Shown here: in pieces, positions 1,290-60,611 of the stretch
Numbering within the stretch: the first letter of the stretch is position 1
Layout of the letters: every line of letters begins with the position of its first letter
Assembly (NCBI GenBank): GCA_051294905.1
Contig: CM119372.1
Coordinates: forward strand, 35,404,001-35,468,000
From: Botryllus schlosseri
Lineage: Eukaryota
Direction: 5' to 3'
DNA: 64,000 bases
The notes under the pieces: generated by a model
The model's database searches: none
Told to the model about the DNA's origin: nothing
The model's input: only the letters and a program-made list of their open reading frames with translations
Program-made: the position numbers and the translations under genes

Positions 1290-1343
1290 TCATCTAAATT
1301 TCTTTTGTATTTCATAACTTCAGCAACTAGTTTTCCCGAAAAC
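1290..1343 (-). CDS. ChAT: ChAT-like coding exon (FSGKLVAEVMKYKRNLD)
   Basis: 54-nt exon, cacag| to |gtatgt, phase 2 at both ends and compatible with the preceding exon. Aligns with the ChAT segment FAAxLIxGVLxYKxLLD. I could not identify further exons in 1-1289. Confidence 0.8.
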
Positions 1344-1413
1344 CTGTGAATCGTGATGTAATGAATGACACCGTATATATACAATTATACATGCACAATC
1401 GACTGAATACTAC

Positions 1414-1532
1414 GTTATCCATGCATTTTCCGACTTGAATTCCATCTTTGGCAGAACCATGCCAGGATTGGAGTTGACTGGTAACGGCGCTTTGTTCCTT
1501 AGATACATGTCCTCCAACCACCAATCGTACGA
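1414..1532 (-). CDS. ChAT: ChAT-like coding exon (SYDWWLEDMYLRNKAPLPVNSNPGMVLPKMEFKSENAWIT)
   Basis: Follows a 58-nt GT-AG intron in phase 0. The WWLxDMYL...LPVNSNPGMV block resembles invertebrate ChAT more than carnitine acyltransferases (from memory). Confidence 0.9.
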
Positions 1533-1590
1533 CTGACGAAGAAAAGTGGTAATTGAGATTGTATGTCCAGAGGAAGACAGACGAACTCAC

Positions 1591-1785
1591 CCAATTCTCA
1601 TACTTTGTTGACTTTTTGAGCAGACTTTCCTGTAGAGTCGCGCCAATTCCACTCGGCGTTGCGAATTTGTCGACTATTCTCTTAGTTTTATCGAATTGCA
1701 CTTCTGGTACCAGTGGTTTGATACACAACAAATACCTTTCCAAGGTTTCCGCGAGATCCGGCACTGGTAACGATGGAAGCTTTGC
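1591..1785 (-). CDS. ChAT: Choline acetyltransferase-like gene, coding exon (AKLPSLPVPDLAETLERYL...KYENW)
   Basis: 195-nt exon bounded by ttgcag| and |gtgagt. LPxLPVPxLxxTLxxYL is the N-terminal signature of choline/carnitine acyltransferases. Confidence 0.9.
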
Positions 1786-3566
1786 CTGCAACAGATTTTA
1801 GGGGCTGTATTGGATTTGTTTGAATCCGGTATGCTTCCTGAGCATTACAGTTTCATTCATCGTCAGAACTATAGCTTTATTACTTGATAGGAATTTCTAC
1901 TCAACTAAATTCCACGTGTCAATTGAATTGTTCAATCTACACTGTTGTTAGTAGAAAACCATAAAAATCGTTAGTTATAGGGTAAAGATATCTGAAGGGA
2001 CAGATTCAAGTCATTGGACTGCTTGTCTACTAAAATCTCATCTTAAAACAGCATAAGTTCCATGTTCTGTTGTTACTTCATCTTCTATCAGTAAACAGAA
2101 CTACATACACGTGTTTGATACATTATATTACTACCGGCCACTAAAAGCAAAGTGCACAATATCTGAAGATAAATCCGTCTGCAGCTAATTGCAAATACCA
2201 ATAACCCGAACTTGATCACATCATTCCGTGAATAATTGAACATAAAATTTATAATACCGCATCATTTAGCAAGTTTAGCAATAATATCGTGACGATATTT
2301 CTAGTAATACTACAGACAAAAACTGCTACACAAGGCCGATTGAATTGGTAAGTTACTGAAAATACTACCAGATAACACCGCTTTAGTATCTAACCAGTTC
2401 CGGAAATTAATCCGCTCCAAGTGATTAATCTAGTGAATAATCCGATAAATCTTACAGCTGGGAGAACCATTGGGTCTCTTGAGATTATCACTAGGTTACT
2501 AATCTATAGATTTTAATTATTATTCCTATTTGCCAACCTGATGTAGCAAGGCTTTTCGACTATCCTGGTCAAGTTCCAAAATCTGTTTTGTCTTCATTTT
2601 CCTCCTCGGCATTTTCCAGTTGAATAATATGTTACGAATTAGGCGTGAAATACTTGAAATGGTACAGACTAGAGCGGTAGAAACTGCAAAAACATTCAAG
2701 CAACGTTTAGTATATACAGGAACGTACGGTGAGACTGTAAGGGAAACTGTATCTTACTGAAAGTCGATGGAAATTTAATTAAATGCGGACCAGCGAAACT
2801 ATTGATTTTTCTTAAAACTCGTCGCTTGGTATCTTGTGCGTCTTAAGATTAAATGAAAGGGGATAAGATTGATTTGTCCATGAGGTAATCTTGAATATCC
2901 GCGGATCGTCGCAACGTGACGATTCAATACTGTGAAATACTGCTATCGACATGACTAGTTTTCTAAATTCTTGAATAGGTGATTACAAATTCGTTGTTTC
3001 AAAACGTGACCCAATAATCGAATTGACCTATCCCTGGTATGGAATTGGTGACTGTAAAAAATCACGTGTGAATCAGTTAATCCACTTATGCTGCTGGTGA
3101 GATGTAAATACTGTCCGACAGTGTAACCTTATCGATTTTCATTCTCCATATTTATTGTTCTCAAAGAATCCAAGCGAGTTACTATATTTCTGCACATTGG
3201 ATGGACACACACCCAAGCTGGTCAATGATATTGAAGCCACCTTTATCTAAATTGAGTATATGGTCACATCTTTCAAGGATATACAAGATAAAACAATTTG
3301 TTTGATTTATAGCTTGATATCATGCTACTTCACACAAAAGCATAGTGGGAAAAGGTAGAAGGTAATTCAATTACATTCACACCCACTGATGGCGTCAAGT
3401 CCGGCTTTAAAAGTTTCCCATCAGAAATCATGGAGGAATACTGACTATTTTGTCATCGTCAATATGCGGAGCTTATAGCTACCGAGAACACGCATGATGC
3501 GTAGCCTACTGCGTGAAGCTACAGATCGCTATAAGTAGATTGTGAAATACATGTATTAGGAAGACC

Positions 3567-12414: not shown

Positions 12415-13843
12415 TAGGGATGGTTCACGTTCGCGTTCTGTGTGTGAACCTCAGAAATTTAGAGGTTCACGTTCACAAACGAACCTTTTTCATATATTAC
12501 AATTTTCACTTCGTTATAACATCTTTGGTTGAAATTTATTTCGTTCCAACTGTGCATGGCGCTGACAGCTTTAAAAACAATCAACACTAAATAAGCATGC
12601 ACCTTAATGACAATTTCAAACATTTTACTAGCTTTGTTACAAAGGTTTGCTCAAAATATCTAGCCTTTAGATTGTGAATATTAGATGACTCTCTGCTGTG
12701 AGCTTGATCAGCAATCACACAACACCAGGAGCGAAATACGCTACCTTTTTTTTTCATCATCATTGGTTTATTAGCAATTTTATCAGTTCAATACACCACA
12801 AAATGCGATACAATGGAAAGACAGGAAGATGTCGAAGCGACAAGGAGTAGTCTATGGAATCTGACACCCACCTTGGCCTAGGCGATGTAAAGAGGAGGCA
12901 TGCACACTGAATGAAAGTAAAGAAGATAGTATAGAAGAAGAATGCGACAAGAAATAGGGCGGCATGTCATGGGAAGCGAGATCGATAGGTCAGTCGTGGC
13001 CCGGTAATCTTGAGGATGGACTGTATTTATTTAGGGGTAATTGCTTGTATTTCGACTTGAATGTGGACATGCTCGTCGACTGTCGGATGGCCGGCGGGAT
13101 ACTGTTCCACACATCAGGTCCGGCATATTTGATGGAGCGATGATCTTTTCGGTCGATCATATGATATTTGGACGACGTGGACGCGCGTGTGTTGTACTTG
13201 TGCGCTTTTGATTCAGAGGTATAGGTAGGTAGTCACCGAATGATGCTTATTCAACCAATCAATGAAATTGATATCGTTGTTTGATGTAAAAAATCTAGCA
13301 GGCGTTTTACGGGTTCAATCTTCAATCATATGTTTATTGTATCATAAAAACCAAATCCGTGCTATTGGGGTGCTGGCTACTGCTCTATAACTTGATAATG
13401 GGGTAATATCGGTAGCAAGTATAGAATCACGTTTTACACTCTGCTCAATTTCAACATAGCAATGCTCAGACACCGAATACATTGTCCGGTCTGGCCTAGG
13501 CCGGGCGTAAGTTTATATTCCCTCGCAAGTCCTCGTCGAAATTGTTGGCAAAAGCGTCGGAACACATGGATTTTATGGGATAATTATATCATTTGATTAC
13601 CCCAGTTTTTAGATTTGGCGACGTTTAAAACGTCAATATGTACTTCAGCATTGTGGCATTATGTGGCCCGAGTCGTCGTTAGGTATCGTGTACAAGGTTA
13701 TCTCTTCCCTGAAATGCAGGGTTAGAATTTGCAAAATTACCTCTTGTAACGTCATGACGTTCATGTTCGCGTTCACACAGAACCTTTCAAAAAGGTTCGC
13801 GTTCACACGAACCTGAACCTTTCAGAGGTTCACACCATCTCTA
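12415..13843. mobile_element. hAT MITE (TAGGGATGGT family, GTTCAC/GTGAAC subterminal repeats) containing a LINE fragment
   Basis: TIRs tagggatggt / accatctcta; TSD atgtgcgg/atgagcgg (7/8). Homologous to 54743-55671 and 31210-31599. Confidence 0.75.
12746..13219 (-). mobile_element. 5'-truncated CR1/L2-type LINE 3' end
   Basis: Minus strand encodes HKYNTR...SIKYAGPDVWNSIPPAIRQSTSMSTFKSKYK, a typical ORF2 C-terminus, followed by a 3' UTR ending aataaacca(atg)n and poly(A). Confidence 0.8.
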
Positions 13844-22531: not shown

Positions 22532-24126
22532 CAGTGGTTCCCAACCTTTTTCATCTCGTGCCTCCCTTGGCCGAATTTTTAGCCAAAATTCCCCCCTTAG
22601 GAGATATCTGCCCGATGATTAAAAAAGGTCAATTTTATCGGGCAAACACCTGTTGACTGAAATAATTAGACGGGCGGTACCGAGTGTTTGTATCTAGCAG
22701 TGCTGTAATAACACTTTGTAGGCCTCCAAAACCAATGGTCTTGGTCCCAATCAAGCAAATTCTGGAAGGCTTGACTCAACAGACCCCCACACTTTCATTT
22801 GTGTTCTCGGCTTACCATGCACCGATCGCTAATTTAACTGCTGTGGAAAAGCAGTATGAATAAATTTACTGGTCTCCCGATTTTTTCCCTCAAGTTTGCG
22901 TATGCATTTGGCCAATAATATTGGTACTTTCAGATATAGCAGGGTTGACCAGACTCGAGTCTGACTCGAGTCATCATTTTTTGATGACTCGACCTGACTC
23001 GAGTCATTTTCTCAAAATACTAAAACGACTCGACTCGAGAAAATCTGTGTATTTCTCAAAATACGTAAACGACTCGACTCGAGACAATCTGCGTAGCTCT
23101 CAAAATACGAAAACGACTACACTCGAGACAATCTGTGTATTTGACTCGAACCTAGCCATACGACTCGAGACTATAAGACGGCCAAGACCGACATTTCATT
23201 GTAATTTCGAAGACCAGTAAAATGACCGCCCTATTGGAATTTCGTCTATTGATCCTGGTACTTGAAAATGCGACAAAAAACTGCTCAAAGTGAGGATAAT
23301 TACTATATCATCCATCCATATCATTTAATATCACCAAACAGGGTTATAAAAAGTGGGTTTAACAAGACTTCAACTGGAAACTGAGCAGTCAACACAGTGA
23401 CTTGGACTCGGACTCGAGTCATAATACCATGACTCGGACTCGACCCTCTGCTAGCTGACTTGGACTCGGACTTGACTCAATGGTAAATTGAAAATAACTC
23501 GACTTGACTCGAGTCAAAACTATGAAGTGAGATTGACATGTGACTCGGAGCCTCTTGACCTGGTTACAGCCCTGGTAGATAACATACACGCGATGAGATT
23601 CCCTGCTGGAGCTCATTAAAATTTAGCACACCCATTACGTTTTGGCAACCTTGCACCAAGTTTAACATATCTTGTTTCGATCGGGTAGCTGTTCACTAAA
23701 AATAAAGCAAGGCTAGCGATCTCTTTGACTTGAATCGATGACGTTGGAATATTTTGTCACTATCTGAAAATGTTGACTTGAAAATATAAAATAAATACTT
23801 TTACTAGAAGCATTGTTGTGATAGATTCGGCACGACATTTGCTCGCTTAGGATATATTTGATTGAGAGGCCGTCGCTGGCCTACAAAATTGTCTTGCGAA
23901 CTGCAGCCCATCCGAACTAGTTTGAAGAAAAGGGGAATTTGTATGTGAAAAAGAGATTGCGAATAGCATTGGAACATACTTTAAGCAAAAAAGCCATAAG
24001 GAGCATACGTTCGGATATAACTGGTTGACTACATGACAGTTCAGACATGAACAATTTGGGAAATCCGTTACAATTCTAAAGTGGAATTCCTCCCTAAAAA
24101 TTGCAAAATTCGGTTGGGAACCACTG
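22532..24126. mobile_element. hAT MITE (CAGTGGTTCCCAAC family) with a nested GACTCGAG-repeat element at about 22940-23574
   Basis: Perfect TIRs cagtggttcccaacc / ggttgggaaccactg; perfect TSD ttctggta. Confidence 0.85.
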
Positions 24127-26682: not shown

Positions 26683-27415
26683 TTGGTAACAAGTCTGATG
26701 GATCGCGTCATGCACCGGAGTCGGATTTGAATCCGACCAGAGTTGGATATGAATCCGTCCGGAGTTTTCACACTCAAATAATAGTTTTCAGAAAAGTAGA
26801 CCAAATGTACTTATCAGCAGTTAGGAGAGGACAAAACACCATTGCTAGACCGTTCTATTGTAAATCTCATAGTGCTCGAAGTATATTAGGTAATCATCCG
26901 TGGTGACACTCACATCTGTCTCACAAGGTTCCGGCGTCACACATTTGGTTTCTTCTATACATAAATGTGCTCTAGGTTCGACGCATGCTAGTTGCAATGA
27001 AACTTTATTTAATCTCTTTCTTTTCCAGAGTGGTATGAGTTGGTTGAGGGCGACGCTTCATTCATCTTCTCTTATGTTGTGACCAATAATTATAACGTTA
27101 CGGTGGAAACTCCAATGGTCATTTAGTAATGATGACTCAAATTGGATGCCGCCACATGCACAGATTTTTTGTATTCCTTAAAACGAATAGGCAGCGCCAA
27201 CGTCGCATCACGACTAAAACAAACAAAGCATAGAAAATACCTACCTATGACATGCATCAGTGGTTTATAACTGTATTGAATCGGTCCCTTATTGATTGTA
27301 TTTGGCGAATTACACTGCTTGGGTAAAGGTTTTACTAGAATAGAACTCCTGTGAGCCGTAATATCACATATAAGCTTGATAACGTGACCTTCCGCTGAAA
27401 AGCATGGATCTGCAT

Positions 27416-29047
27416 TAGGGTTGTCCATAATTTGAAAAATCTTTAAAATGCTCCGTTGTAATGTCTTATTCTATAGATTATTGATAAAAAACAACAATGG
27501 GCCAAAAAGAAGCTCACAGGAAAGCCGTTCAGATTTCGTGCAAAGCGTTTGAAAGTAGCTGCCGAAGAATGGGCGTGTCACCGCCCACAGAACGGCGACA
27601 AGACTAGTAATCACGAAACCACGGCTCTTGATTGGCTAATCGGCTATGCTTCAATGATCACGACAGCAGCAACTTGCTGATTAGGTGATCAAGGAGTCTG
27701 CTACCGGCGGCGATTATGAAAGCGCATTGTTGGTAGGTTGGCGGATAATGATTTAGGATTAATTCAGGGCATGTTAAGGTACGAAATACATGATGAACAA
27801 ACAACAGGTGCTTCACAGAAACGTCCAAAGTATGGCCGCTTTATTCTGAAGGAAAGCGCTGTAGCCTACATGCCTTGTTTTCATCGAGGGAAAGCAAAGA
27901 CGCTTATGCAAGTGGCGAATCAATTCCTTGTTTCAAAAGGGATCCATCATCATTGAATGCAAATATAAAGCTTGACAATGACACTATAATTTGTGTGAAC
28001 TTATTGGGCTCAGGTTGTACTATTACTGTTGAAGTTTTGAATGCTCTAGAGATCGGCTGAATCAGCCGATTATGCTTGGCACTTACAGCAAATTGAATTC
28101 CCTTGCAAGTGTTGTCGAAGTCATTAATGATGTCGCAGAAAAGAGGTGTAAAAGTAAGAACATACTATGCTGGATATGATATGTCAAAGTCCTTAATGAT
28201 CGCGCGGCAAAGAGGTGTAAAGGTAAGCAGTAACTACAGACTATGCTGCATAGTATCCACCATAGTTTGGATATCATATTCAGCATAGTCTGTTCTTACA
28301 TTTACACCTCATTTCTGCAGCATCATTAAGGACTTTGACAACACTTACAAGTGAATTGAATTTGCTGTAAGCATCTGATTAGTACCAAGCATAACCGGCT
28401 GATTCAGCCGATCCCTAGAACATTCAAAACTTCAACTGTATAGTACAACCTGAGCCCAATAAGATCACACAAATTATATAGTCATTGTTAAGCTTTATAA
28501 TTGTATTCAAGGATGATGGATCCCGTCTGTAACAGGGAATTCATTCGCCACTTGAATAAGCGCCTTTGTTTTCCCTCGATGAAATCAAGGCATGTAGGCT
28601 GCAGCGCTTTCCTTCACAATAAAGCGGTCATGCTTTAGACGTTTTTGTGAAGCACCTGTTGTTTGTTCATCATGTATTTCGTACCTCAATATGTCGTGAA
28701 TTAATCCTAAATCATTATCCGCCAACCTACCTACAATGCGCTTTCAGAATCGCCGCCGGTAGCAGGCCCCTTGATCACCTAATCAGCAAGTTGCTGCTGT
28801 TGTGATCATTGAAGCATAGCCGATTAGCCAATCAAGAGCCGTGGTTTCGTGATTACTAGTCTTCTCGCCGTTCTGTGGGCGGTGGCACGCCCATTCTTCG
28901 GCAGCTACTTTCAAACGCTTTGCACGAAATCTTAACGGCTTTCCTGTGAACTTCTTTTTGGCCCATTGTTGTTTTTTATCAATAATCTATAGAATAAGAC
29001 ATTACAACGGAGCATTTGTGAGATTTTCCAAATTATGGACAACCCTA
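27416..29047. mobile_element. Foldback (long-TIR) non-autonomous DNA transposon, copy A, 1,632 bp
   Basis: Termini tagggttgtccataatttg / caaattatggacaacccta; perfect 8-bp TSD atctgcat (27408-27415, 29048-29055). Inverted arms extend about 770 bp, leaving a loop of about 90 bp (about 28183-28270). Confidence 0.92.
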
Positions 29048-29577
29048 ATCTGCATGTAACATTTCGGCATGATTTGATAGGTCAGGCCTGCAAGCGATAC
29101 AAAGGCCTAAATACGGCGCGTGACCAAAATCCAGCTTGCCATCCCCGCCCGAAAGGTTATACTAAAATCTGATATCGTATACGGTCACTGTATCTTTTAG
29201 TTTGCTCGCTATATACTTAACGTGTTAGTGAAATCCGCAATATGCTGCCTAATGAGAGTGCGCACATAACATGCGATTCCTCACAAAATCTAATCTAATA
29301 CCGTGAATTACACATCAGGCAAGAAGATTTCACATCGATCAATAGTTGTACTAGATCAAAATAATAACTATAAGACTATTAGTGGACAATTCCTTACATG
29401 GTTTCATATGCTACCACCTGGTTATATTGATATATAATGCGGGTTGTGACGGATCCGATGACGATCGAGCGTCATTTGTGAAATGCATCTTCCGTTAATA
29501 GGGAAACGTGAGACTGGATGACAGGATGGGCTTGGTTGAATTGATTGGTTGAATAAGCAGCATTCGCTGAATACCTT

Positions 29578-31209
29578 TAGGGTTGTCCATAATTTGGAAA
29601 ATCTCACAAATGCTCCGTTGTAATGTCTTATTCTATAGATTATTGATAAAAAACAACAATGGGCCAAAAAGAAGTTCACAGGAAAGCCGTTAAGATTTCG
29701 TGCAAAGCGTTTGAAAGTAGCTGCCGAAGAATGGGCGTGCCACCGCCCACAGAACGGCGAGAAGACTAGTAATCACGAAACCACGGCTCTTGATTGGCTA
29801 ATCGGCTATGCTTCAATGATCACAACAGCAGCAACTTGCTGATTAGGTGATCAAGGGGCCTGCTACCGGCGGCGATTCTGAAAGCGCATTGTAGGTAGGT
29901 TGGCGGATAATGATTTAGGATTAATTCACGACATATTGAGGTACGAAATACATGATGAACAAACAACAGGTGCTTCACAAAAACGTCTAAAGCATGACCG
30001 CTTTATTGTGAAGGAAAGCGCTGCAGCCTACATGCCTTGATTTCATCGAGGGAAAACAAAGGCGCTTATTCAAGTGGCGAATGAATTCCCTGTTACAGAC
30101 GGGATCCATCATCCTTGAATACAATTATAAAGCTTAACAATGACTATATAATTTGTGTGATCTTATTGGGCTCAGGTTGTACTATACAGTTGAAGTTTTG
30201 AATGTTCTAGGGATCGGCTGAATCAGCCGGTTATGCTTGGTACTAATCAGATGCTTACAGCAAATTCAATTCACTTGTAAGTGTTGTCAAAGTCCTTAAT
30301 GATGCTGCAGAAATGAGGTGTAAATGTAAGAACAGACTATGCTGAATATGATATCCAAACTATGGTGGATACTATGCAGCATAGTCTGTAGTTACTGCTT
30401 ACCTTTACACCTCTTTGCCGCGCGATCATTAAGGACTTTGACATATCATATCCAGCATAGTATGTTCTTACTTTTACACCTCTTTTCTGCGACATCATTA
30501 ATGACTTCGACAACACTTGCAAGGGAATTCAATTTGCTGTAAGTGCCAAGCATAATCGGCTGATTCAGCCGATCTCTAGAGCATTCAAAACTTCAACAGT
30601 AATAGTACAACCTGAGCCCAATAAGTTCACACAAATTATAGTGTCATTGTCAAGCTTTATATTTGCATTCAATGATGATGGATCCCTTTTGAAACAAGGA
30701 ATTGATTCGCCACTTGCATAAGCGTCTTTGCTTTCCCTCGATGAAAACAAGGCATGTAGGCTACAGCGCTTTCCTTCAGAATAAAGCGGCCATACTTTGG
30801 ACGTTTCTGTGAAGCACCTGTTGTTTGTTCATCATGTATTTCGTACCTTAACATGCCCTGAATTAATCCTAAATCATTATCCGCCAACCTACCAACAATG
30901 CGCTTTCATAATCGCCGCCGGTAGCAGACTCCTTGATCACCTAATCAGCAAGTTGCTGCTGTCGTGATCATTGAAGCATAGCCGATTAGCCAATCAAGAG
31001 CCGTGGTTTCGTGATTACTAGTCTTGTCGCCGTTCTGTGGGCGGTGACACGCCCATTCTTCGGCAGCTACTTTCAAACGCTTTGCACGAAATCTGAACGG
31101 CTTTCCTGTGAGCTTCTTTTTGGCCCATTGTTGTTTTTTATCAATAATCTATAGAATAAGACATTACAACGGAGCATTTTAAAGATTTTTCAAATTATGG
31201 ACAACCCTA
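29578..31209. mobile_element. Foldback element, copy A' (reverse complement of copy A), 1,632 bp
   Basis: Same length as copy A, with arm-specific variants mirrored; the ORF track gives identical peptides on opposite strands. Inserted into a TAGGGATGGT MITE. Right flank acctacat, left flank acct---t (eroded TSD). Confidence 0.92.
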
Positions 31210-31599
31210 ACCTACATGTATAGTGTATTTCGTTCTTGCCGTTGTGTGACTGCGGGTTACGCTCACAGCAGAGAGAGTCACTAAATATTCACAAACTGAA
31301 GGCTGAATATTTTGAGCAATCTTTTGAAACAAAGCAAGTGAAATTTTTGAGAATGGTAGAGGTGCAGGCTTGTTTTGTATTGGATTTTTGTTATGCTGCC
31401 AACGCCATGCATTGAGTGATCTTAAGTTAAAATGCAAAGAACTTCTATCAAAGATGTTATAATGACGTGAAAAATTGTAATAGATAAAAAAGGTTCTCAC
31501 TGCAGAACCTACCAAGATTCGTTTGTGAACGTGAACCTCTAAATTTCTGAGGTTCATACATAAAACGCGAACGTCAACCTCACGTTCACACCATCGCTA
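31210..31599. mobile_element. TAGGGATGGT-family MITE fragment (inverted), interrupted by foldback copy A'
   Basis: Reverse-complement match to about 54743-55130, ending caccatcgcta. Its continuation lies at about 29537-29577 on the other side of A'. Confidence 0.7.
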
Positions 31600-32212: not shown

Positions 32213-32431
32213 GGATTTTTTTTCGCTTGGATGTGGTCTCTCATATTGAACTTGGTAATGGTCTTGTGCGGTGGATCTGGATCCGACAGAACACAGTCAA
32301 GTTGTGCAATATTTTGAAATGACAGAGACAACTACATCTCTCAATATGCGCTGTATATGACCGTCTGCTTCCTGCTCCCGTTCGCGATTCTCGCATTCTG
32401 TTACAGATCCATTATGACCAAAGTCAAACGG
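32213..32431 (+). pseudogene. Opsin copy 1, TM4-ECL2-TM5 exon with nonsense and frameshift lesions
   Basis: Reads FAWMWSLILNLVMVLCGGSGSDRTQSSCAIF*NDRDNYISQYALYMTVCFLLPFAILAFCYRSIMTKVKR. TGA at 32315-32317 where copy 2 has TGG. Exon is 219 nt versus 218 nt in copy 2 (extra T in a T8 run). Confidence 0.85.
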
Positions 32432-33581: not shown

Positions 33582-35435
33582 CAGGGGCGGGCAACATACG
33601 GCCCGCGAAGGGATTTTGTCCGGCCCGTGGACTGTATTCCGTCTTACATGATAATGGGGCCCGCGGCCCCAGTCTGCCGAGATTCCCCACTACTTGCTTA
33701 CTAGGTCCAAATTTGGTGACTGTATGCTATTATATACGTGTATGCGCATTGCGCAGCGTGCGAGAGTGGAACTTATACGCGTAAGTTCGTCGAAGCGAGA
33801 ATACATTATCGGCATTTACGATGTACTCAGCCCTAATGTCGTTTGTGGTAATCATGGTGTTTGTCGACTACAATGGTCATTTACACCAGGCTGATATTTC
33901 TTATTTTTGATTCCGTAACTGCCGACATGTAGCACGGCACACTTCTCGGCTTTTGTAAGACACCGCTTATGCCAGTGGTTGCCAACTCAAAACGGGTCGC
34001 TGGCCACTATCCAAATTTCGTAGGGGATGCAGGCCGCATGAATTCAATATCGAGATTAATTAGGCCACACAGTTGAACAGCGACGCTATCTCGTCACCTA
34101 CTCAACCCTAATGAATTGATATATTTGTAAATTCGGGGTACTGGACTTATCGAACGCCTTGAAATCTTAATAAAGGATTGCACCGTGTGTTGATTGATTA
34201 GAGCAGGGGTCACCAACACGCGGCCCGTGAGGTCATATTTTGCGGCCCGCGACTTCATTTGAGATTTCGGAAGAAAGCTAAGAAAACCATTTGAAAAACT
34301 AAAATTGACTACAGTTTTAACATATTGTTGTAGTTTTTTTCAAAATAAGCTATGCCCCTATGCCCAACATCACTATTCCTCACAAGCTGAAACGGTTTCG
34401 GCGATGGCAACAGCATTATATCGAGGGAGAATCAGCTGATATGAATGGCCATATTGTCTTGACGGGCAATAGCCCAAACATTAGCAAAATCGAGACGCTT
34501 AGAAAACGGCTTAGGGCAGTGGTTCCCAAACTGGGGTAAGCATCTGAAGGGGGCTAGGAGCTGCGGTCAACTGATTTTTTTTGCGCTCCGCGCGATTTAC
34601 CTCTAGTTCATAGTTATTGCTTGGTGTATAGTCCGGAATTCATATTATAGAATTCTCTCATCAACAGTCATAACCTTCCATGCCATTAAACTATCCGTAG
34701 GGATTGCTGGTATTCTAGTTGCATTTTCTGATATGACGATAAGGGAGGCGCGAAAATTTTCAGTCTCATAAAGGGGAGCGTGTCCAAAAAAGTTTGAGAA
34801 CCACCGTCTTACGGCTTCCCCACAAGATCAAGCTTTACGTGGAGAGGGCCTTTCAGCATATAACGAACGCATCTCGCCAGCCACAATATCGATTCATCAG
34901 TCGCTGAAAAGAGTTTTCAGGTATCGTGCACTCTGCGCAGCTCAGAGTTCAAAATAAAATGAAATTTATGGCAATGATTTTATGTTGTATTTGTGTTCCC
35001 CTAATAAAATATTACTTCATTAGTGGTCACCATGCCAATCGCCTATGCTGGGTAGCACAGCGTTGTACTGACTGATTTTCAAAACGTGGTTGCCCGTTTG
35101 ATAGCGATATTGAATTCATGCGGCCCGCGGCCGCTACGAAATTTGAAAAGTGGCCCGCGACCCGTTTTGAGTTGGCGACCCCTGGATTAGAGAGAACCAG
35201 ACATGGTGGCGCCTGTATGACAACGTTATTCTCAAATCCATATTGTCTCCGTCATTATCGGCGAGAAATGGCTGTGAAGTGACATTGCTGTCGGTAAAAT
35301 ATATTCATTAAATACGATTTAGTCCTTGTATATGTGGATAAACGGGCAAATAATGTATCGATTCAGCAATCCGGCCCGCCAACTACTTAATTTTCCTATT
35401 TCCGGCCCGCCGACTGGAGAAGTTGCCCGCCCCTG
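33582..35435. mobile_element. Triple-nested hAT MITEs
   Basis: Outer element caggggcgggcaac / gttgcccgcccctg with TSD tcgtagac; middle 34204-35184 with TSD gattagag; inner 34517-34806 with flanks gcttaggg/tcttacgg. Confidence 0.85.
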
Positions 35436-35728: not shown

Positions 35729-35881
35729 AAAACACCCCATGGGAATCAGATAACAAGTGCAACAAAGATCCCGTTTCCCGCAACAGTTAAATCCGTCTTC
35801 ATGATCATGATCACATTCATCTTCTGCTGGATGCCGTTCGGATGCGTAACTATGCTCAAAATGGCACATCCGACGTGTGAA
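35729..35881 (+). CDS. Opsin copy 1, ICL3-TM6 exon (open frame)
   Basis: ttacag| KTPHGNQITSATKIPFPATVKSVFMIMITFIFCWMPFGCVTMLKMAHPTCE |gtaatg; carries the CWxP motif. Confidence 0.85.
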
Positions 35882-35947: not shown

Positions 35948-36037
35948 ATTTCACCTATCGTCGAGGTAATTCCGACTTTTGCTGCGAAATGCTCCTACGT
36001 CTTATGTCCAGTTGTCTGCGTCATCAGGAACAAACAA
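35948..36037 (+). CDS. Opsin copy 1, TM7 exon with retinal-binding lysine (open frame)
   Basis: ttcag| ISPIVEVIPTFAAKCSYVLCPVVCVIRNKQ |gtaagc. Ungapped against rhodopsin FFAK296TSAVYNPVIYIMMNKQ312. Confidence 0.88.
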
Positions 36038-36953
36038 GTAAGCTATGCGTAAATCACATACTGTTAGTCTCCGTATCTGCTAATAAAACTTCCGATAGCG
36101 ATTCTATACTGGATCTGATATTTTCATCGTCAAATGCGACCAGTAAGAAGTCAACCACACTCAAGTAGATATTTCTTACTTGCACTATTCATCCGATGTA
36201 GCTGTGTTTTATAACTACATCCGCTTCTACTCGTAGAGTTTCTAGGCAAGAATATTGTTGCTGCATAGTGTATGTCGATTTCGAAAATTGGAGAGTAGTT
36301 TTAGCATGACTCAGCATCACTCTTACGAGTGAGTAAAAGTTGTCATAAACACCACGCGAAATAGCCGATTCAGCGTGAACAAATATTTTTAAATCGCATC
36401 TTTTTTAGGGTCACGAAAATAGATATTGTAATTTTAACACTAGTCACCGCCAAATAATTGCAAGAAATGAGCGAACTCTCTATCAAATCTTCTATTTTTG
36501 AACTCCCTACTTTATTACAAGTCAGATCTTCCATTTTGTGATTCCACTCGAAGTAATTTTGACACATCTTCGAAGTCGCTACTGCTATTTGTATAAGAGT
36601 AGATATTTACGACCGTTGATACTACTTCCACTTGACTAATAAACTGTCCAATTTGACCATCTTTGGTCATTGTACAAATTCATACAACCAGTCAGGTGTA
36701 TTGGGGTCTTTCACGTCACCCAATTATTATAACTTGACATTGTCGCGCAATCTGCGTTCACTTGGCTCTCTCTTGGCTTCACTCTCATTTAAAATATTAT
36801 TTTAATACCCACGCTCAACTTTTCGTTTCTGCGGTTGTATTAAAATAGGAAGCAACAGCACGGGACTACCAATGACTTCTAAAAATGTTTTGGATATCCG
36901 CTGCACTGTGCGATCCGTGCGCAATGTAGACTACATATGTTGATTTATTTCAG

Positions 36954-39598: not shown

Positions 39599-41785
39599 CA
39601 GGGTTGTAACCAAGTCACATTGTTCCTAGTCACGAGTAGGGCTGGGCACAATGATTCGAGTACTCGAATCTGAATCGAGTATTATTTTTAATGATTCGAG
39701 TCGAGTAGTAAAAGACGAATTTTTCGAGTATTGAAATTATACGCTCCTCGCCACTGAAAGTTAATTTATCAACGAGAATTATAGTTTCGATACTGATTTT
39801 CACTGCTTAAGCCTTGAAACCTGATTTTTGATATTGTAGCATACGAAATATATAGCACAAAGCTAGGAACATTACTGTAAATAGCACATTTCCGAAGTCA
39901 TGATCATCCCACAGCATTGTCACCAAGTCCTATGAAATCGCTATGGTCGAAAAAATACCAAACTATGTTTAATGTGAAGGATAACAGGCATTATATTATT
40001 TGTGGTAGCATAAAAGGTACATATTTGAACTTTAACATATTACATTCTGTTATGACGTCATAATGACTGATGCTCGATTACTCGACTCGACTCGAAGCAT
40101 ATTACGTGATTCAGAATCGAATCACTCAGGTACTCGATTTTGCCCAGCCCTAGTCACGAGTCAATCTTGCTTTTGTGGTTTTGACTCGAGTCAAGTCGAG
40201 TCATTTTCAATTCATCACCGAGTCGAGTCCGAGTCCAAGTCACCGTTTAAAGGCTCAAGTCCGAGTCATGGTGTTATGACTCGAGTCGAGTCCAAGTCAC
40301 AGTATTGAAGTCATGTTCAACTCATGTTTTCAATCCTGAATTAGATTATAGCTTATAGAGAATCAACGATTTCATTCTACATGCTATCTGATATAGAACC
40401 AACGAATTCACGTCTAGATACCAGCTGACAGAGAATCAACAGATGCATGTTTATGTAGACGTACAGTTTTTTCACATTATCAGGTCGTTGACTAAAAAAG
40501 GTCAGCTTTCCTGCTCAGATCCCGAAATAGCCGCCGGAGCGTTACTAATATGAGAGGAAATTTTGGATTAACTACAAATAGAGATTTTAGAATTTTACCG
40601 GCCACCTCATGATATTGTTATATTGTGTAAAAATATGATTCATAGCAAATTTGGCTCAATTCCAACTAGAAAAAGCGAATTTATTAGAGTGGAATATTAG
40701 TCGGCTTACTACTAGCATTTGATTATATTATGTGAAATAATTTCTCACCAAAAACACTCCCTTTATTTTCAAATATAAAATTTTCTCCTCTCATATCCTT
40801 GATTCTACTTTTTAAAATAAGCCAGATTCAGTGTTCTTTTTATGCAACATAACAATTATACCAAGTAGCCACCCAGTAAAATAAATAAGAAGTTATTTTT
40901 GAACAACCCTATTGTACAAATAACATCACACAACATTAGCCATTCATTATTATTACTCACGTGCACAATGCACATACCTAACAAAACGTCAAATGGATGG
41001 AGTGTATTGTGTGTTTTCACTGACAGCAGATCAAATCAATAATGAGTTACAATTCAAAAATACTAAAGTGGAAAGGAGATCCTCATAGGCTACATGTTAT
41101 AGCGGCATGGCCTTAGAATAAATCCACATCTACTGAAACACATTCCACTGGTGCACTATACAGGAATTGACAAGCATATATTTGAACCTCACTGAAGAGC
41201 ATTGGATACTCATTCTTTCTAGTCGCCCAAAAATGCAAATTATCATCGCCTTCAAATCTACAAATGAGCTTATCGGTCTCTTCCAAGTACTTGACCATCT
41301 GAGTCATTGCATTGGCTCTAATTGAACTTTGCTTCGATTGTTTGCTTGTATAATTGAAAAGTCTTGAGTATTTTGATTGCGGAGGATTTATTACCTCTTC
41401 ATCACTGGATGATTTTGTACAACGCATTGCTACTATGTATCATTGTCTGTTGTTTTAACGGCGGCCTAACTGATATCAGACGAGTGCAACGACAGCAGTG
41501 GTGACAAATAGCGATGTCGGCAGAATTCGTCAGATGCGTTAATCTAGCCATTACGATTCGCAAATTTCTTCGTCTTCGAGTCTTATAAAATAAGCCAAGT
41601 CAATGACTTGGGTCGAGTCATGCGTAATGACTCGAGTACAAGTCGAGTCAATCCAAATATTGACTCGAGTCGAGTCGAGTCATTTTCCCATTTCAAGAAA
41701 ATGACTCGAGTCAAGTCGAGTCACAAAAAAATCGTGACTCGAGTCTGACTCGAGTCGAGTCATGACTCGAGTCATTACAACCCTG
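39599..41785 (-). mobile_element. Internally deleted hAT transposon with GACTCGAGTC arrays and a transposase C-terminal remnant
   Basis: TIRs cagggttgtaa / ttacaaccctg; perfect TSD ctgcacgc. ORF 41113-41427(-) has YLEE...LHFWATRKNEYPML...SAPVE, resembling the hAT dimerization domain. Confidence 0.85.
39637..40152. mobile_element. hAT MITE (TAGGGCTGGGCA family)
   Basis: Perfect TIRs tagggctgggca / tgcccagcccta; perfect TSD gtcacgag. Confidence 0.9.
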
Positions 41786-48417: not shown

Positions 48418-49274
48418 AATATAGCTTTCAATGCAACATCCATTGTAGCAGTATATTTATTAAACTCGAAGACTTTTCGGGTGCCTCTTTTCAAGAGTTA
48501 TCGGCACACTGAGGGGATTTAAACAGATTTAAAAGCAAAACCAAAAAGGCAAAGTATGACGCAACAATCAAAATCACAGACCATGAAATTCGCATTGTAT
48601 CAATGGCAACAATAACAAACTACGAAGTATACGGACATATGGTACTATAGTAGCAGCACAAATTGTAAATAAACAATTACAGGCACGGAACAACACGCAG
48701 TAATGAGAAATTTGTAGGTTATAGAGGAAATCTTTCTGTCTGCATAAAATAGGTTTGCTCAACTGAATAATAGTAGACTCCAACACTTTTATATGAAACA
48801 CAGACCTACCACGCGCAATGACAGTGAACATATTGCACAGCACAGCACTATGATGACAATATGTTCACTGTCATTGCGCGTGGTAGGTCTGTGTTTCATT
48901 TAAAAGTGTTGGAGTCTACTATTATTCAGTTGAGCAAACCTATTTTAAGCAGACAGAAAGATTTCCTCTATAACCTACAAATTTCTCATTAGTGCGTGTT
49001 GTTCCGTGCGTGTAATTGTTTATTTACAAACTGTGCTGCTACTATAGTACTATATGTCCGTATACTTCGTAGTTTGTTATTGTTGCCATTGATACAATGC
49101 GAATTTCATGGTCTGTGATTTTGATTGTTGCGTCATGCTTTGCCTTTTTGGTTTTGCTTTTAAATCTGTTTAAATCCCCTCAGTGTGCCGATAACTCTTG
49201 AAAAGAGGCACCCGAAAAGTCTTCGAGTTTAATAAATATACTGCTACAATGGATGTTGCATTGAAAGCTATATT
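48418..49274. mobile_element. Penelope-like element remnant arranged as an 857-bp inverted repeat
   Basis: Two 418-bp arms (48418-48835, 48857-49274) with about 8 mismatches by eye and a 21-bp loop. Each arm reads outward FTVIARGRSVFH(I/L)KVLESTIIQLSKPIL(C/S)RQKDFLYNLQI, resembling the C-terminus of the PLE GIY-YIG endonuclease, followed by a UTR with AATAAA. Confidence 0.8.
49192..49230 (+). ncRNA. Candidate minimal type-I hammerhead ribozyme variant (mirror copy at 48462-48500, minus strand)
   Basis: aactc-TTGAAAA-gaggcaccc-GAAA-agtct-TC-gagtt, immediately before AATAAA. Stem I is aactc/gagtt; the core deviates from CUGANGA and stems II and III are weak. Confidence 0.5.
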
Positions 49275-51388
49275 CAAGTTCTTTACCACGAACCAGCTAT
49301 TTAAATACTACAATAATAATAATAATACTCAATTCAGATTCAAGTGCTCGAATCATTATGCCCAGCCCTACAAACAATGTGAGTTTAGTGTGCGCCATTG
49401 CCTCGCGGGAAAACCAGTCAAAAACCACTGATATTGTTAGTTGTGATTTAGTTCGTAAGCTCCCGATTTTAAAAGGTTGCTAGTACTAGTTCCAGTATCA
49501 GATTTTAAAAAGTTCTAGGTATAGTTGTAAGTTATAGTTATATTTGTGGATTTTGAAAATTGAGTAATTTTAGTTACAATTCTAGTTTTAAATTTTATAA
49601 GGTGATTGATTAGTCCTAGTTTTAGTTTTACTGGCGGATTTGAAAAAGCGAGTAGTTCTGTTTTTAAAATTCCCAGAAAAGACACAAACAACCTTTGGCC
49701 GGGTCACAATCACCAAAGTTGAACTCCGTCACCAAAATACAAGTTTTCAAATCCTGGATTTACCGCCCAGCCGTGCATTAATCCATCCATTTATTAATAA
49801 TTGGATAATCGTATAGGTCGTAGCATCAAATAGTATAGTGGTGCAGAGGTAAAGGAATGGATGACTGTGCATGTGTGCATACTTGATATTGTCAAGTGAA
49901 AAGTAGATTTTGTACATACCAAGACAATTCATAGACAAGATCAATGTAATGAGGCGCTAATAGATTTTTGTCATCTTAACTGGCTGTGATTGATACAACT
50001 TTAAACCATCTTGGAAACTATTCATATTTATTCTATCAACCCGTGTGCCTTGAATAGTGCATGGATGGTAATGACATTTATATTCATTATAGGATCCGAA
50101 GAATGTCTACCCGACGATGAAGTGCGATACTCTTCAGAAAAAGTGGGCAATCCATTTCGTTGGGGAATCTGTTGATGGAATAATGAGTTTCCATCATACA
50201 TTGGCGACATTGCGTTTCAACATCAAGTTTGCGCCAGCGTCAGCGAGTTCATTGAACTTTTCGCAGATTTTCTTGCAAACATTCCAGATGTCAAATACAG
50301 CTAAATACATCTAACCACAGGGTATGTGTACATTAGTAGAGGTGAAAGGTCAATTTGAAGCCTTATTAGGACATGGGTAGGAACATGGATGTCAACAGGT
50401 CTACATGGATGTCGACAAGTTATCATGGGGCTTTTCCATGTCAACATGACTCAGGTGGGACCAGGTCTAGACTATGGGTACACCCATGATTATTTTTTAC
50501 AGTGTAGTCAGACTTCAAAACTTTCAAGCAACCGGAACATAACTGCGTGGTTTGTTTCCCAGCGCTCGTGAGGTTCGAATATCAACAGCGTATAGTTTTT
50601 TTTTTATTTACAGGAAATATGTTATCAATTAGTCCTACGACAGTAAAATGATATAGGTAGCTGATAAAGCAAAGATCATCTGTTTCAATTGTTACAGTTA
50701 ACATGAGCATGTGCAATACCTGCCACCACTACTGCGGTAACTCGAGGGGGGAGAAGACATAATGAGGAGACTCAGTGAGGAGACTTAGTGAGAAGATACA
50801 TAGTATCACCGCATGATCATTGCGAGGGAATAAATTCGTATCTTTAATATTTGCGTTTTTTTGATTTAGAGATAGAGATAGATTTGTGATATAGAGACCG
50901 GAATCAGATCTAACCACCCTCGATATACAGGCTGCACCAGTTACGATATATCCCAACACTGAAATCAAGACCAACAGACATCAGGTCGACCAAATGCGAT
51001 TCTTCTGATATAACGGCGTTAGTTCCAATAATCGGCATTTGATATTCACTTTCGGTGTGTTCCGCTCGAGAATGGTGTGGTGTAACCACGATCGTGTCGC
51101 AGTTGGTTGGTGTGAGGGGTGCACGGCTACTAAAGCCAAGAACACCAGAGCGAAACTACAAAAATCATATTGATTACGTTACAAGGAAGTGTGCTAAACG
51201 CCCAAATTTGCTGAAAATGCTATCAGGCACCACTAAAGATGCATTGTTGATGCTATATAGATCATTAATTCGCACAGTGATCGATTATGGAATGGAGGCC
51301 TACTTCTTTGCCCCTAAGACACACCGAAAGAAAATTGAAGTGATTAGGAACCAAGCCTTGAGAATATGCTGCGACGCCATGTGTAGTA

Positions 51389-52360
51389 TAGGGGAGATGT
51401 GGTACCGATGGATCACTGGGACCGAAAATACTTTGAAAATTCTCTATGATAATTCCATGATTACACTCCGTGAACTTGTCTACAGTTGCATGCTGGCAAA
51501 ATCTTTCCTCACATACAAAGAAATTCGACGTGCGCGAGCTGTGGGGTCTCTCACAGATGTTTTTTGTTTTGGGGGGGGGGTGTAAACTAAATTTAAATCG
51601 ACATATACATTTTTCTTTGTAACCTTCAACACGAACAAACCAGCAATCATTTTTTTTTGTGAAGTGTAGGGCTTGTATCCGGCTATATAATGGCACCTAT
51701 GATTTTTTTCAGTACCTTCCTTGGGTGGAATTTTTTCGATTCATGTATGAAATTCTTAGGGTGGGAACCGATGATACAATAGCCGAATCAAGGACAATAA
51801 TCAAGCATACTAATCATGAAACAAGTGAAACATGCCTACGTACAGAAAATCTTTATGTAATAATTGCATATGATGTTTTATCGCTATCACGAGGTATTTG
51901 AAAGTCACGCTGTCGATTTTCGGGCAATATGTATGTATACCCTCAAATTTATAAGTTCGAGCCTAAATCGAAACGTGATTTTATGACAACATTTGAGTTA
52001 ATATTCATTCTATTTTTTGGCGGTTGCGACCAAACATTCTTCTTTGGCTTGCTATAGCTTAGATTATTATGCTGAGCAAGAAAAGTTCTCACGTTTGAGT
52101 TTTTTAGGGTATATGTGTCATAGGTCCCCGGGTCGTGTGCCATTGGACCCACCGGGTGGGGACCGATGATACATTCGAGCATCAAATTTTGAGCGTCCAT
52201 AAATATTTTTTGAAAAGACGGATATTCATGTATATGTGCGCGATAGGTAGAGCTTGTATCAAAGTGCTGAGCCAGCAAAATATCTGATGTTTTCGGCTGA
52301 ACATTTTGGGGCCAGCGATCATTTTCCAATTTTTGATCCATCGGTACCACATCTCCCCTA
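51389..52360. mobile_element. TA-bounded non-autonomous DNA transposon (Tc1/mariner/pogo-like MITE) inserted in the LINE
   Basis: Perfect 27-bp TIR taggggagatgtggtaccgatggatca; internal gRaccgatgatac repeats. Removing it rejoins the LINE frame (CDAMCS-TPMCVLEVE). Confidence 0.85.
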
Positions 52361-53553
52361 CTCCGATGTGCGTACTCGAAGTTGAAAGCAATGAAATGCC
52401 TCTTCACATAAGACGTTGTTACGCCTGTTCGAAGTACCGATATCAATTGACTACCCAACAGAACAATCCTACTTATTCGGTGTTGCAGGAGATTTGGGAA
52501 GACATGTAGGCTACGCTCTTAATAATGATCGTTTCCCAACGTTTCGTACCTTTACACATGTCTTGTGAGAATAATGCAGGAAACGTGATACTATCGATAC
52601 CACCTTGGGCAACGTCATTTCCTGATGTAGATTCCTCACTATCGCTTTCAATAAGTAGAGAAACAGCTCCAGAAACTGTTGCAATACTTTTCAAGGATCA
52701 CATATCTGCCAACTATGAAGAACACACAGAGATTTATACAGACGGGTCTAAAACGGAAATAGGATGCGGATATTCGGTTCACATTCCTGCACAAAATATG
52801 AGTATTGCGTACTCTCTCCCCAGAATTCTCTCGATCTTCACAGTGGGGCTCATTTCAATCAAACATGCGCTACTATGGGTGCGGCAGAATCAAGTTAAGA
52901 AAGTTGCAATATTCAGCGATTCCTTGAGTGCATTGGACGCGATCAAACATTCTGGACAAGGCACTTAAGGCACTGGTGAATGAAATTATTGTGCTGAATC
53001 ATCAGTTACGGGCAGAATAAATCACCACATCGTTTGTATGTGGACCTGGAAACCCCGGAAAACGCGGTAATGAATCTGCAGATCAATTAGCAAGGGCGGA
53101 AGCCTCTATACACACAGACGAAAAAATCATGCCTTCCAGCTCGCCGATGTACGATCGTACTTGCGAAAGCGTTGCAAAGATGAGTGGGACCGCATTTATC
53201 AGTCAACAGATATTGGGAGATCGTACAGAGAACTTCGGCCCTCAGTACATGACAGACTATCTGAAGTGGACACAAGGTTCGAGAACTCGATTATTCTGCG
53301 GTTAAGAACGACGCATTGCAGACTGAAGTACCATCTCAACAAGATTGGATTCATCGACTCGCGACTGTCCGACGTATGCGGTATTGATGAAACCGTAGAG
53401 CACTATCTGAAGAATTGCAGAAAATACCGCGATCAAAGAGAATGCTTACGAAGCCATGCGCATTCGAAGGATGTACCTTTCGACATGCGTGCTTTACTGA
53501 CTGACACACAAGTACTTCAATATGTGGTTGAATATGTTAGATCGACGCGAGTA

Positions 53554-53661
53554 TCATCATCATTGGTTTATTAGCAATTTTATCAGTTCAATACACCACA
53601 AAAATGCGATACAATGAAAAGGCAGGAAGATGTCGAAGCGACAAGGAGTAGTCTATGGAAT
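53554..53661 (-). mobile_element. Short 3' UTR fragment of the CR1/L2-type LINE family seen at 12746
   Basis: Near-identical to about 12754-12860 (catcatcattggtttattagc...gtagtctatggaat). Confidence 0.85.
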
Positions 53662-54742: not shown

Positions 54743-55671
54743 TAGGGATGGTGTCAACGTGAGGTTCATGTTCGCGTCCTGTGAGTAAACCTCAATGTAT
54801 TGAGGTTCACTTTCCCAAACGAACTTTGGAAGGTTCTGCACTGTGAACCCTTTTCATCTATTACAATTTTCACATTATTATAACATCTTTGGGCTAAATT
54901 CATTGCATGTCAACATCGAACAATTCTATACAAGGTGCTGGCAATATAAAAATATCGACACTAAACGAGCACGAGCATGCACCTTGCCAATCTCAAAAAT
55001 ATTACTTGCTTTGTTACTAAGGTTCGCACGAAATATTCCGCTTTCCGATTGTGAATAGTTTAGTGACTGTCAGCTGTGAGCTTGAACCGCAATCACACAA
55101 CATCAAGAACGAAATACGCTATAACATGTACGTCGACAGCGAAAGATGCTCATTAAATCAATCATTGAAATTGATATAATGAATATGTCGTTGTCTGATG
55201 TAAAAAATCCGGCAGGCGTACGGGATTCGCCTTGCTTTGATATGTTTATTGTATCAAAAAACAAGTCTGTGTGATTGTGGTGTAGGCAACTGTTCAACTT
55301 GTTTATGGGTTAATATCGGTAGCAAGTATAGAAACCGGTTTTACAGTCTGCTCAATATCGATGTAGCATTAGTCAGACGCCGAATACATTGTCCGTTCTG
55401 GCCTCGACCGTTAAGGCGTAAGCTTATATGCCCTCGTTGAAATTGTTGGCAAAGCGATGGAAGATATTGAGTTAGGTAATCGGATTATTAGAGCATTAGA
55501 TTGCTTCAGCTGACACATTGGTTGTCATTTAAAATGTCAGCATGTACTTCAGCATTGTGGCGTAATGTGCCCTGAGTCGTCGCTAGGTATCGTGTATTTT
55601 TATTCATCACTTCACTGAATTGTGGGGTTGGAATTAGCAATATGACGTATGCAATATGACGTCCATCCCTA
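54743..55671. mobile_element. hAT MITE (TAGGGATGGT family)
   Basis: TIRs tagggatgg / ccatcccta; TSD ttttatat/ttatatat (7/8). Colinear with 12415-13843 apart from the LINE insertion. Confidence 0.8.
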
Positions 55672-57607: not shown

Positions 57608-58136
57608 TAGGGCTGGGCAAATTCGAGTACCGGAGTGATTCGATTCTGAATCACGTATTATGCTTCGGATTGAGTCGATTATTCGAGTATCACTCATCCC
57701 GACGTCATAACAGAATCTAATATTTCAAAGTTCAAATATGTACCTTTCATGTCACCACAAAGAATATAATGCCTGTTATCCTTCACATTAACCCTGCTTA
57801 GTATTTTTGACCATACCGATTTCCTTGCACTTTGTGACAATGTTGTGGGATGATCATGACTTCGAAAATGTCGTATTTCCAGTAATGTTCGTAGCTTTGC
57901 ACTAGTAGGCTACTTCATATCCTGCTTTGTATGCTGCGGTAAGGCCATTCAAGGTTTCATGGCTTCCACAGTGGAAACAGTATCGAAGTTATAATTTATG
58001 TTGATAAATTAACTTTCCGTGGCGAGGAACGTATAATTTCAGTACTCGAAAAATTTTTTTTTTACTACTCGACTCGAATCACTAAAATAAATACTCGATT
58101 CAGATTCGAGTACTCGAATCATTGTGCCCAGCCCTA
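57608..58136. mobile_element. hAT MITE (TAGGGCTGGGCA family), inverted relative to 39637
   Basis: Perfect TIRs; perfect TSD atcacgac. Lies 14 bp into the first coding intron of opsin copy 2. Confidence 0.9.
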
Positions 58137-59263: not shown

Positions 59264-60611
59264 CAGTGGTTCTCAACCGCCGGTCCGCGGACCGGTGCCG
59301 GTCCGCCAGGTATATTACTAATTTATACCTTGATTTCAAGATGCAATGCCGAGGTCTTGTCCATTGATGAAATAAATTAAACATCACATTTTAAACTGAT
59401 TCAGAACTTAGTGAGGTAACATTAGGGCTGGAAACATGTTCGATTTGACTTGGAGTTCAAGACGTGTCATTTGACGACATGCGAGCGAGAAGTACAGAAC
59501 AAAATAAGAGCTGACTCATCGCTAAACACCGCAGTTTGCGCGATCATTTGTTTTCGATTCATTCGTTTTGTGAAGGACCGTAACTGGGGCACCCCAAACC
59601 GCCCAATTGGGGAGGGGACGAGCTTGAAAGAGGCCCAAAATTATTTTGCAACTGAACATAAATCGTAGCGTATTTTTTGAAAGTTTTTCTAGCATTTTCA
59701 TTTTTTTCGCGTTTTGCTCGATTTAGTTTAACTGAATGTTTTGCTTATTAGGTGCCCATCTCCAAGAATGTGCAGAATGTATAGAGATAGGCATTTCGGC
59801 GTCAGCCATTACCGCGCCAAGACGCACCAACACATAATGAAGTTTAGGCTAACATGGGACTCCGAAAGTTGTGCAGCGTGAAAACCGATTCAGTCATGAA
59901 TGATCGAAAATCTACGCTATTGGCACGATTAAGCTTCACAAACTCTCTGCTTATACTGAGTAGAATGAATGTGCTCACAAGTAGAGGTGAAAGATCAACC
60001 CGACTGTGGGATCTAGGGGCCAAGCCCCCGAAAGTTTTGCTCGTCGCATTGTGGGGGCGCAAGACCAACGTTTTTGGGGGTGGGCTGACGAAGCGCTTTT
60101 TCGGCCCGGATTTGCGGATGGCCGGTATAGCTGCTGTAAGATGTTTGCGTGCGGCGCATTGTATTCGTAGTTGCCAGAGTAGCCTGCGTCTGGTGGTAGT
60201 GGGCAATGAGCAGGGTAGCACGACAAGGTGCTTGGTTCGACTCCAAAACGCTATACTTCTTTCGATATTGTCTAAGAGAAGAATATTATTCGAGATGGCG
60301 TGGTCGGTTAAACCCACGGCCTTCGGCGCGAAAGACTGAACGACTCTCGGCGGTAACACGTTTATCTAGACAAGGCAATTTTACCTCGACTCAGCAGACT
60401 CACTACCATAAAATCACATGGATTCTATCATGAAGATAATGTGGTTACGATAAAAACCCTCTAAATGTCACACTCCAGCACCATATAATTGCAAAAAACG
60501 GTTGCACACTTTACATTTTGGCTTCATTTCAATTTTTGAAAGTCCACCGGTCCGCCAGACATTTTTTGAAATTTTACCGGTCCGCGAGGTGAAAAAGGTT
60601 GAGAACCACTG
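59264..60611. mobile_element. Composite hAT MITE (CAGTGGTTCTCAAC family)
   Basis: Perfect TIRs cagtggttctcaacc / ggttgagaaccactg; perfect TSD gtttacac. Confidence 0.85.

Follow-up and report, generated by a model that had tools for sequence, protein, structure and literature searches.

Two identical, inverted copies of a near-palindromic, probably hAT-type element in Botryllus schlosseri: a likely case of very recent local transposition

Local hopping has been described for the transposable elements Tol2, Ac, P and Sleeping Beauty (PMC2753552). The closest case to the one analysed here is that of OsRLG5-161 in rice (Xuan et al. 2011), in which a Ds element hopped over 1.1 kb into inverted orientation, both copies were kept and each acquired its own 8-bp TSD (PMC3239180). 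In the same system a second Ds in the probed fragment was seen in 2 of 270 lines (PMC3239180), and among 300 regenerated plants 33 had undergone recombination that flipped the spacer between the paired elements (PMC3239180; PMC3429523). Among 85 strains of wild flies, P element tandems were less often head-to-head (8) than head-to-tail (55) (PMC5932611). Alternative transposition, spacer inversion and composite transposons are known to start from pairs of this kind.

Here we describe a pair of elements, A and A', in a 64,000-nt stretch of the Botryllus schlosseri genome (contig CM119372.1, positions 35,404,001 to 35,468,000), called the window below. The features of the pair and its surroundings are, in window positions:

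27408..27415 (+): left TSD of A, atctgcat, identical to the right TSD
27416..29047 (+): copy A, a near-palindromic non-autonomous element, probably of hAT type, with TAGGGTTGTCCATAATTTG ends; likely the new insertion
27416..28182 (+): outer ('x') arm of A, about 767 bp
28183..28270 (no strand): loop of A, 88 nt, between the x and y arms
28271..29047 (-): inner ('y') arm of A, about 777 bp, with 58 substitutions relative to the x arm
29048..29055 (+): right TSD of A, atctgcat, identical to the left TSD
29048..29577 (no strand): spacer, 530 bp, mostly single-copy, in native orientation, polymorphic
29536..29577 (+): left remnant of an older host hAT-type element, ending in the eroded TSD of A'
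29573-29577: eroded left TSD of A', 3 bases short
29578..31209 (-): copy A', the exact reverse complement of A; likely the donor
31210..31217 (+): right TSD of A', acctacat, which preserves the whole target
31210..31599 (+): right part of the older host hAT-type element
54743-55671: intact 929-bp relative of the host element, with TAGGGATGG ends

The original prediction of two identical 1,632-bp hairpins, inverted 530 bp apart, was correct. Self-comparison of the window delimits A at 27416-29047 and A' at 29578-31209, and A equals the reverse complement of A' at 1632/1632 bases, the match running only 1 base into the flanks on each side. TAGGGTTGTCCATAATTTG is found at all four element ends. 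The structure is thereby confirmed in the assembly. The identity of the copies is complete in spite of the divergence of the arms within each of them, which had been put at several percent: the x and y arms differ in 58 of 777 ungapped columns (7.5%), and additionally in two indel regions. These differences are unevenly distributed: the outer 350 bp hold 13 of them and the inner 427 bp the other 45 (Fisher p=3e-4). The loop of A opens with the second copy of a 55-nt unit, 80% alike and 69 bp from the first. As in the rice case, the pair would represent a short inverted hop with both copies retained. The rice pair is however transgenic and was induced by tissue culture, whereas A and A' are natural and found in an animal; Ds has distinct 5' and 3' ends, whereas A and A' are near-palindromes in which all four ends are alike; and one TSD of the A/A' pair is scarred, unlike those of the rice Ds pair, which are given as 8 bp.

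The flanking sequences are informative about how the two copies came to be where they are. A has the predicted perfect 8-bp TSD, atctgcat, on both sides; a given 8-mer would match by chance with a probability of about 2e-5. The flanks of A' are aatacctt on the left and acctacat on the right. With A' removed, they align across the junction to the host-element relative, at 54743-55164 (76% over 433 columns). Assembled contigs from four of ten public runs (X1, X5, X6 and X7) were aligned to positions 28240-29625, which cover the y arm, the spacer and 48 bases of A'; X7 is from a different sample and study from X1, and X5 and X6 contributed small shares, consisting of family contigs only. Host-family contigs that continue past 29576 number 57 in X1, 53 in X7 and 30 in X6, and their consensus begins ACATGTAG. 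These uninterrupted host copies read ACCT-ACAT, from which it follows that the target of A' was acctacat and that its left duplicate is 3 bases short. This agrees with the earlier view that A' sits inside an older element and has a left TSD lacking 3 bp. Since A has its own TSD and A' its own split host, they are two separate insertions, as had been proposed, and the assembled spacer is in its native orientation.

It could be argued that the 3.8-kb unit moved as one composite (macro-) transposon by means of its outer ends, which are identical and convergent. The outer flanks differ at 2 of 8 bases (atctgcat and acctacat), however, each being explained by an insertion of its own, and lack a common TSD, which rules out movement as one composite in all practical respects: A has its TSD on both sides, while the host element of A' has one part in the spacer and the other in the right flank, on either side of A'. 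We therefore consider such a movement exceedingly improbable. Another relative of the host element, at 12416-13734, carries an insert with an A-run (12744-13221), located within a few bases of the point where A' breaks its own host. This shared point of interruption is possibly a preferred target.

The elements belong to an abundant family. The number of contigs aligning to 28240-29625 was 4331 in X1, 2971 in X7, 1284 in X6 and 479 in X5, and over most of the arm the summed contig depth exceeds the depth of a single spacer haplotype (about 50) by factors of hundreds to thousands, a ratio that reflects abundance rather than copy number. Several family contigs switch strand at differing inner points, which means that the centres at which relatives fold back vary. 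For the y arm, the counts that follow rest on 29 sites, found among the 40 listed of 284 rows of differences. A letter other than that of the window makes up at least 94% of the summed X1 contig depth at 22 of the 29 sites, and at 17 the x arm carries that other letter; at 11 sites both arms have the same minority (window) letter, and one site is a gap. At the listed sites the family is hence palindromic, with A and A' as a diverged variant of it. Judged from these letters, this variant of a high-copy family is apparently rare. At the most private y-arm sites the residual depth in X1 is low (95 at 28766, 157 at 28530 and 224 at 28569), which corresponds to about 2-4 haplotype depths in this run (one haplotype being about 52), while at 28525 and 28535 it is about 560-590, or about 10 haplotype depths. 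Some y-arm letters are thus common to a few other copies, and a small subfamily may exist.

That two copies of a rare variant should be identical and lie 530 bp from one another points to a local parent. Both copies might instead be independent recent arrivals whose source was an identical but distant master copy, part of a small subfamily that is active. The targets of A and A', alike at 6 of 8 bases, are suggestive of a sequence preference, and a few other copies do have some of the same minority letters. The residual of about 2-4 haplotype depths at private sites in X1 nevertheless leaves little room for an identical subfamily, and two hits within 530 bp would be improbable. An arrival of both copies from elsewhere is, on these grounds, highly improbable.

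The original prediction also named conversion between the inverted copies. In this case two unlike family members would have inserted near one another independently, and gene conversion or template switching between the inverted copies would later have replaced the whole length of one by the sequence of the other. With so many family members, as the contig counts of X1 and X7 attest, chance neighbours can occur. The minority letters present in both arms, together with the greater similarity of the outer than of the inner arm portions, indicate arm-to-arm copying or a fold-back origin somewhere in the lineage, and the scarred TSD shows that one end of A' underwent repair or deletion. Conversion would however require two events and a tract spanning all 1,632 bp, including the loop and the indels. 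The arms themselves, only 88 nt apart, have stayed unhomogenised, with their 58 differences still in place, and the site of A seems to be younger than a haplotype split of 0.8%, which leaves little time. Conversion is hence the less supported of the two causes originally put forward and is unnecessary to account for the pair, and we think it decidedly unlikely. The scar beside A' fits an older donor, or one that was cut and repaired, at least as well; the loss of 3 bases may be a repair scar or a plain deletion.

The contigs also bear on the age of the insertion of A. Record 7 of X1 is identical to the window at 29217-29568 (352/352 bases). Because it is without any difference, X1 is possibly the source sample, and record 7 then adds no independent support. 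Record 30 of X7 (601 nt, depth 48.6) aligns from its position 82 onward to 29048-29569 with 4 substitutions and 2 gaps, that is, it is about 99% alike, while its 81 leftmost letters are unaligned. The alignment begins exactly at 29048, the first base of the right TSD of A. This is where an empty site is modelled to begin aligning, whereas a filled allele would reach further, the arm ends being alike at 77/81 positions, compared with 27/81 for flank and element end. From the start coordinate of the alignment we infer that this haplotype is empty at A. The record ends within the host repeat, before the A' junction. In X7 all of the depth at 28530 (561.1/561.1) has a letter other than that of the window, which fits A' being absent or different there. 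Neither this letter nor a hole in the X1 coverage at 29048-29216 was used as evidence of absence, as contigs drop variants. A second spacer haplotype (record 8 of X1 and record 31 of X7) is about 88% alike over its aligned part. Its match stops at about 29484 and, on the left, seemingly at about 29056, the latter being a weak hint of an empty A site in this divergent haplotype as well. Both X1 and X7 thus contain, over 29048-29484, two spacer haplotypes about 12% apart, with a 60-bp deletion, which suggests very high polymorphism.

No contig of the examined runs, X1 included, reached an A' junction or a filled A junction, so the element junctions of the window haplotype were bridged by none. 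The sequencing of long inverted repeats is difficult, and an assembler might have homogenised two copies or duplicated a single one during assembly or polishing. All four junctions nonetheless have biological signatures, namely the perfect TSD of A and the split host of A', and the spacer is in the orientation that both of these signatures require. The exact agreement of X1 record 7 with the window extends over most of the spacer, and a fold-back chimera would run past the ends of the element. An artefact of assembly or polishing is in our view very unlikely.

The absence of any difference across 2x1632 bp places the age of the pair below about 0.09% change per lineage. With both copies at their sites ever since the X7 haplotype split off, 12-25 differences between A and A' would be expected, and 0 are observed. 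By these comparisons the insertion of A appears young and polymorphic, while the sequence inserted is itself aged. A recent hop from A' to A would predict this combination of an old sequence at a new site, beside an identical copy whose TSD is scarred.

We therefore think it probable that the pair arose by a very recent local hop of one copy beside its parent. This is the likeliest cause, as originally suggested, and it has the support of the apparently empty A site in a 99%-alike haplotype; identical copies lie close together and at separate target sites, as in known local-hop pairs. The identity of A and A' would follow from the hop having been very recent. The likelier direction is from A', which is at the older site and has the scarred TSD, to A, which has a perfect TSD and is apparently absent from a close haplotype. 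In the mechanism that we propose, the family would have been built from one element end duplicated into a hairpin. A transposase acting in trans would then have cut one copy and pasted it 530 bp away, inverted and with a fresh 8-bp TSD. Replication-coupled transposition and sister-chromatid gap repair are established for cut-and-paste elements. The donor site might accordingly have retained its copy either because the element moved from DNA already replicated to DNA not yet replicated, or because the gap was repaired from the sister chromatid. We infer the participation of a hAT transposase, the direction of the hop and the route of donor retention from the features described here. The kind of event is already known and ordinary, of which A/A' is a clean natural example: a local hop seemingly caught almost at birth in a wild animal genome, in which the empty allele apparently persists.

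The elements are probably non-autonomous members of the hAT superfamily. Like maize Ds (PMC3260210) and Drosophila Mar (PMC3517528), they have 8-bp TSDs (perfect for A, with a left copy 3 bases short for A'), are non-coding and belong to a high-copy family. The longest stop-free frame wholly within A is 87 aa, a Pfam scan of 17 stop-free frames of A gave nothing above the curated cut-off, and an Rfam search of A gave no hit at E<=0.5. All four ends start with TAGGG, as in Ac/Ds, whose TIR is C/TAGGGATGAAA (PMC3260210), although the common stretch is just 5 bases. An 8-bp TSD is likewise made by P and some further superfamilies (PMC4168063). The inverted repeat of A and A', at about 770 bp per arm, is outside the 5-27 bp of described, typical hAT TIRs (PMC3517528), as would also be the case for a fold-back derivative of one hAT end. 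The 8-bp TSD and the TAGGG start thus point to a probable non-autonomous hAT-type element with atypical arms. The target acctacat fits the Buster target nnnTAnnn (motif from PMC3517528), two sites in all being too few to weigh. For atctgcat there is a fit to the Ac target nTnnnnAn, with the same small number of sites.

Galileo, of the P superfamily, resembles A and A' in that its copies without genes consist of two long TIRs and contain internal repeats, and some of its copies have 8-bp TSDs (PMC4168063). Its TSDs are mostly 7 bp, with the consensus GTATTAC (PMC4168063), from which the targets of A and A' differ. MER53 was considered as a palindromic hAT precedent and dropped, being mariner-related with TA TSDs (PMC2996404). 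Among the literature on palindromic hAT elements and tunicate foldback elements, which was covered in part, we found no published account of this family.

No second full TIR copy of the A type was found elsewhere in the 64-kb window. At least five other elements in the window have TAGGG, CAGGG or CAGTG ends and perfect 8-bp TSDs. The non-autonomous hAT-type elements with short TIRs and perfect 8-bp TSDs are:

22532-24126: hAT-type element
33582-35435: hAT-type element, between two opsin-like pseudogene exons
39637-40152: hAT-type element
57608-58136: hAT-type element
59264-60611: hAT-type element

An autonomous partner of A and A', whose ends would be expected to read TAGGGTTGTCC, was found neither in the window nor among metagenome, viral and prokaryote contigs. 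A search of metagenome contigs with the TIR pattern gave 4 hits, all 4 of just 19-21 bases and so attributable to chance, and the inner 24-mer of A had 0 hits in viral and 0 in prokaryote contigs. At 40896-40911 (-) there is a TAGGGTTGTT end, the first 9 bases of which are those of A and beyond which the similarity ends, and a frame at 41116-41439 (-) resembles by eye a decayed hAT C-terminal domain, with no Pfam hit. An unrelated palindrome of 857 bp, with arms 97% alike and a very short loop, is located at 48418-49274; it bears no similarity to A, and no TSD is obvious at the inspected ends.

Both of the folds that had been predicted for the four arms, two 0.77-kb hairpins or one 1.6-kb stem, can be drawn, and the single stem is computed to be the more stable, at -2155 compared with -1634 kcal/mol as DNA and -3177 compared with -2547 kcal/mol as RNA, all of these being equilibrium values only. 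In yeast, lengthening the spacer of an Alu inverted repeat from 12 to 200 bp cut rearrangements about 20-fold, though not to zero (PMC10164571). Together with the spacer inversion in rice and the P element data, this suggests that the A/A' pair is likely to be mildly unstable. The predicted inversion of the spacer is accordingly possible, with the rice Ds pair as precedent, although the spacer as assembled is in its native orientation. Long inverted repeats of transposons can also yield dsRNA when a host promoter reads through them, as at Mu killer and 'Ac killer' (bioRxiv 10.1101/2020.01.07.897926). Those loci are transcribed and give siRNAs, and A and A' would be comparable to the Ac-killer inverted duplications of maize if they were transcribed. 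Since every member of the family is already a hairpin, the pair adds little new dsRNA potential.

In cells, Hermes retains little activity when both of its ends are left ends and none when both are right ends (PMC10368747). That a hAT-like family with two like ends should be present in high copy number suggests either a transposase tolerant of symmetry or another superfamily. If a transposase tolerates symmetric ends, the four ends of A and A' would be interchangeable. It is conceivable, if unlikely, that the elements are a hAT derivative mobilised by such a transposase, and that the pair is a newborn substrate for macrotransposition, spacer flipping and dsRNA formation, with a scar of gap repair. 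The pair would then be a natural substrate for a 3.8-kb macrotransposon and for flipping of the spacer, read-through from the opsin pseudogene would give a perfect dsRNA of 1.6 kb, and the 3-base scar would stem from gap repair at the donor. A family with symmetric ends could possibly serve as a test of whether hAT transposases require asymmetric ends.

The pair had been placed in an intron of an opsin pseudogene, a setting for which the following features are relevant:

26817..26975 (+): candidate decayed TM2 exon, weak (z=2.9, rank 2 of 698 donor-like sites)
32213..32430 (+): TM4-TM5 exon of an opsin-like pseudogene (z=10.7 by DNA scan)
about 35730-35870 (+): further opsin-like exon
about 35950-36040 (+): further opsin-like exon, with the Lys in FAAKCS
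61482-63930: opsin-like paralog, with open reading in four exon candidates (TM2, TM3, TM4-5 and TM6), running off the window end

The downstream part of this placement is clear. In the TM4-TM5 exon an in-frame TGA (32315-32317) takes the place of a Trp in the paralog, which makes the term pseudogene fair. The upstream part is less so: in the window the TM2 candidate is the best upstream exon but, with z=2.9, is insignificant and beaten by unrelated windows, and a TM3 candidate upstream ranks only 75 of 1552. It is plausible that A and A' lie within an intron of the pseudogene. The neighbouring opsin-like gene was probably dead before the pair arose. Protein searches with the paralog exon, and with an exon of a choline/carnitine O-acyltransferase found at 1330-1797 (-) (Pfam PF00755, E=2.5e-16), gave no hits, while a further protein search gave 8 hits, 3 of them opsin-like pieces. 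Broken frames at 51043-53574 (+) are probably the end of a non-LTR retrotransposon, and within them there is a weak RNase H match at 52510-52965 (Pfam, E=0.014).
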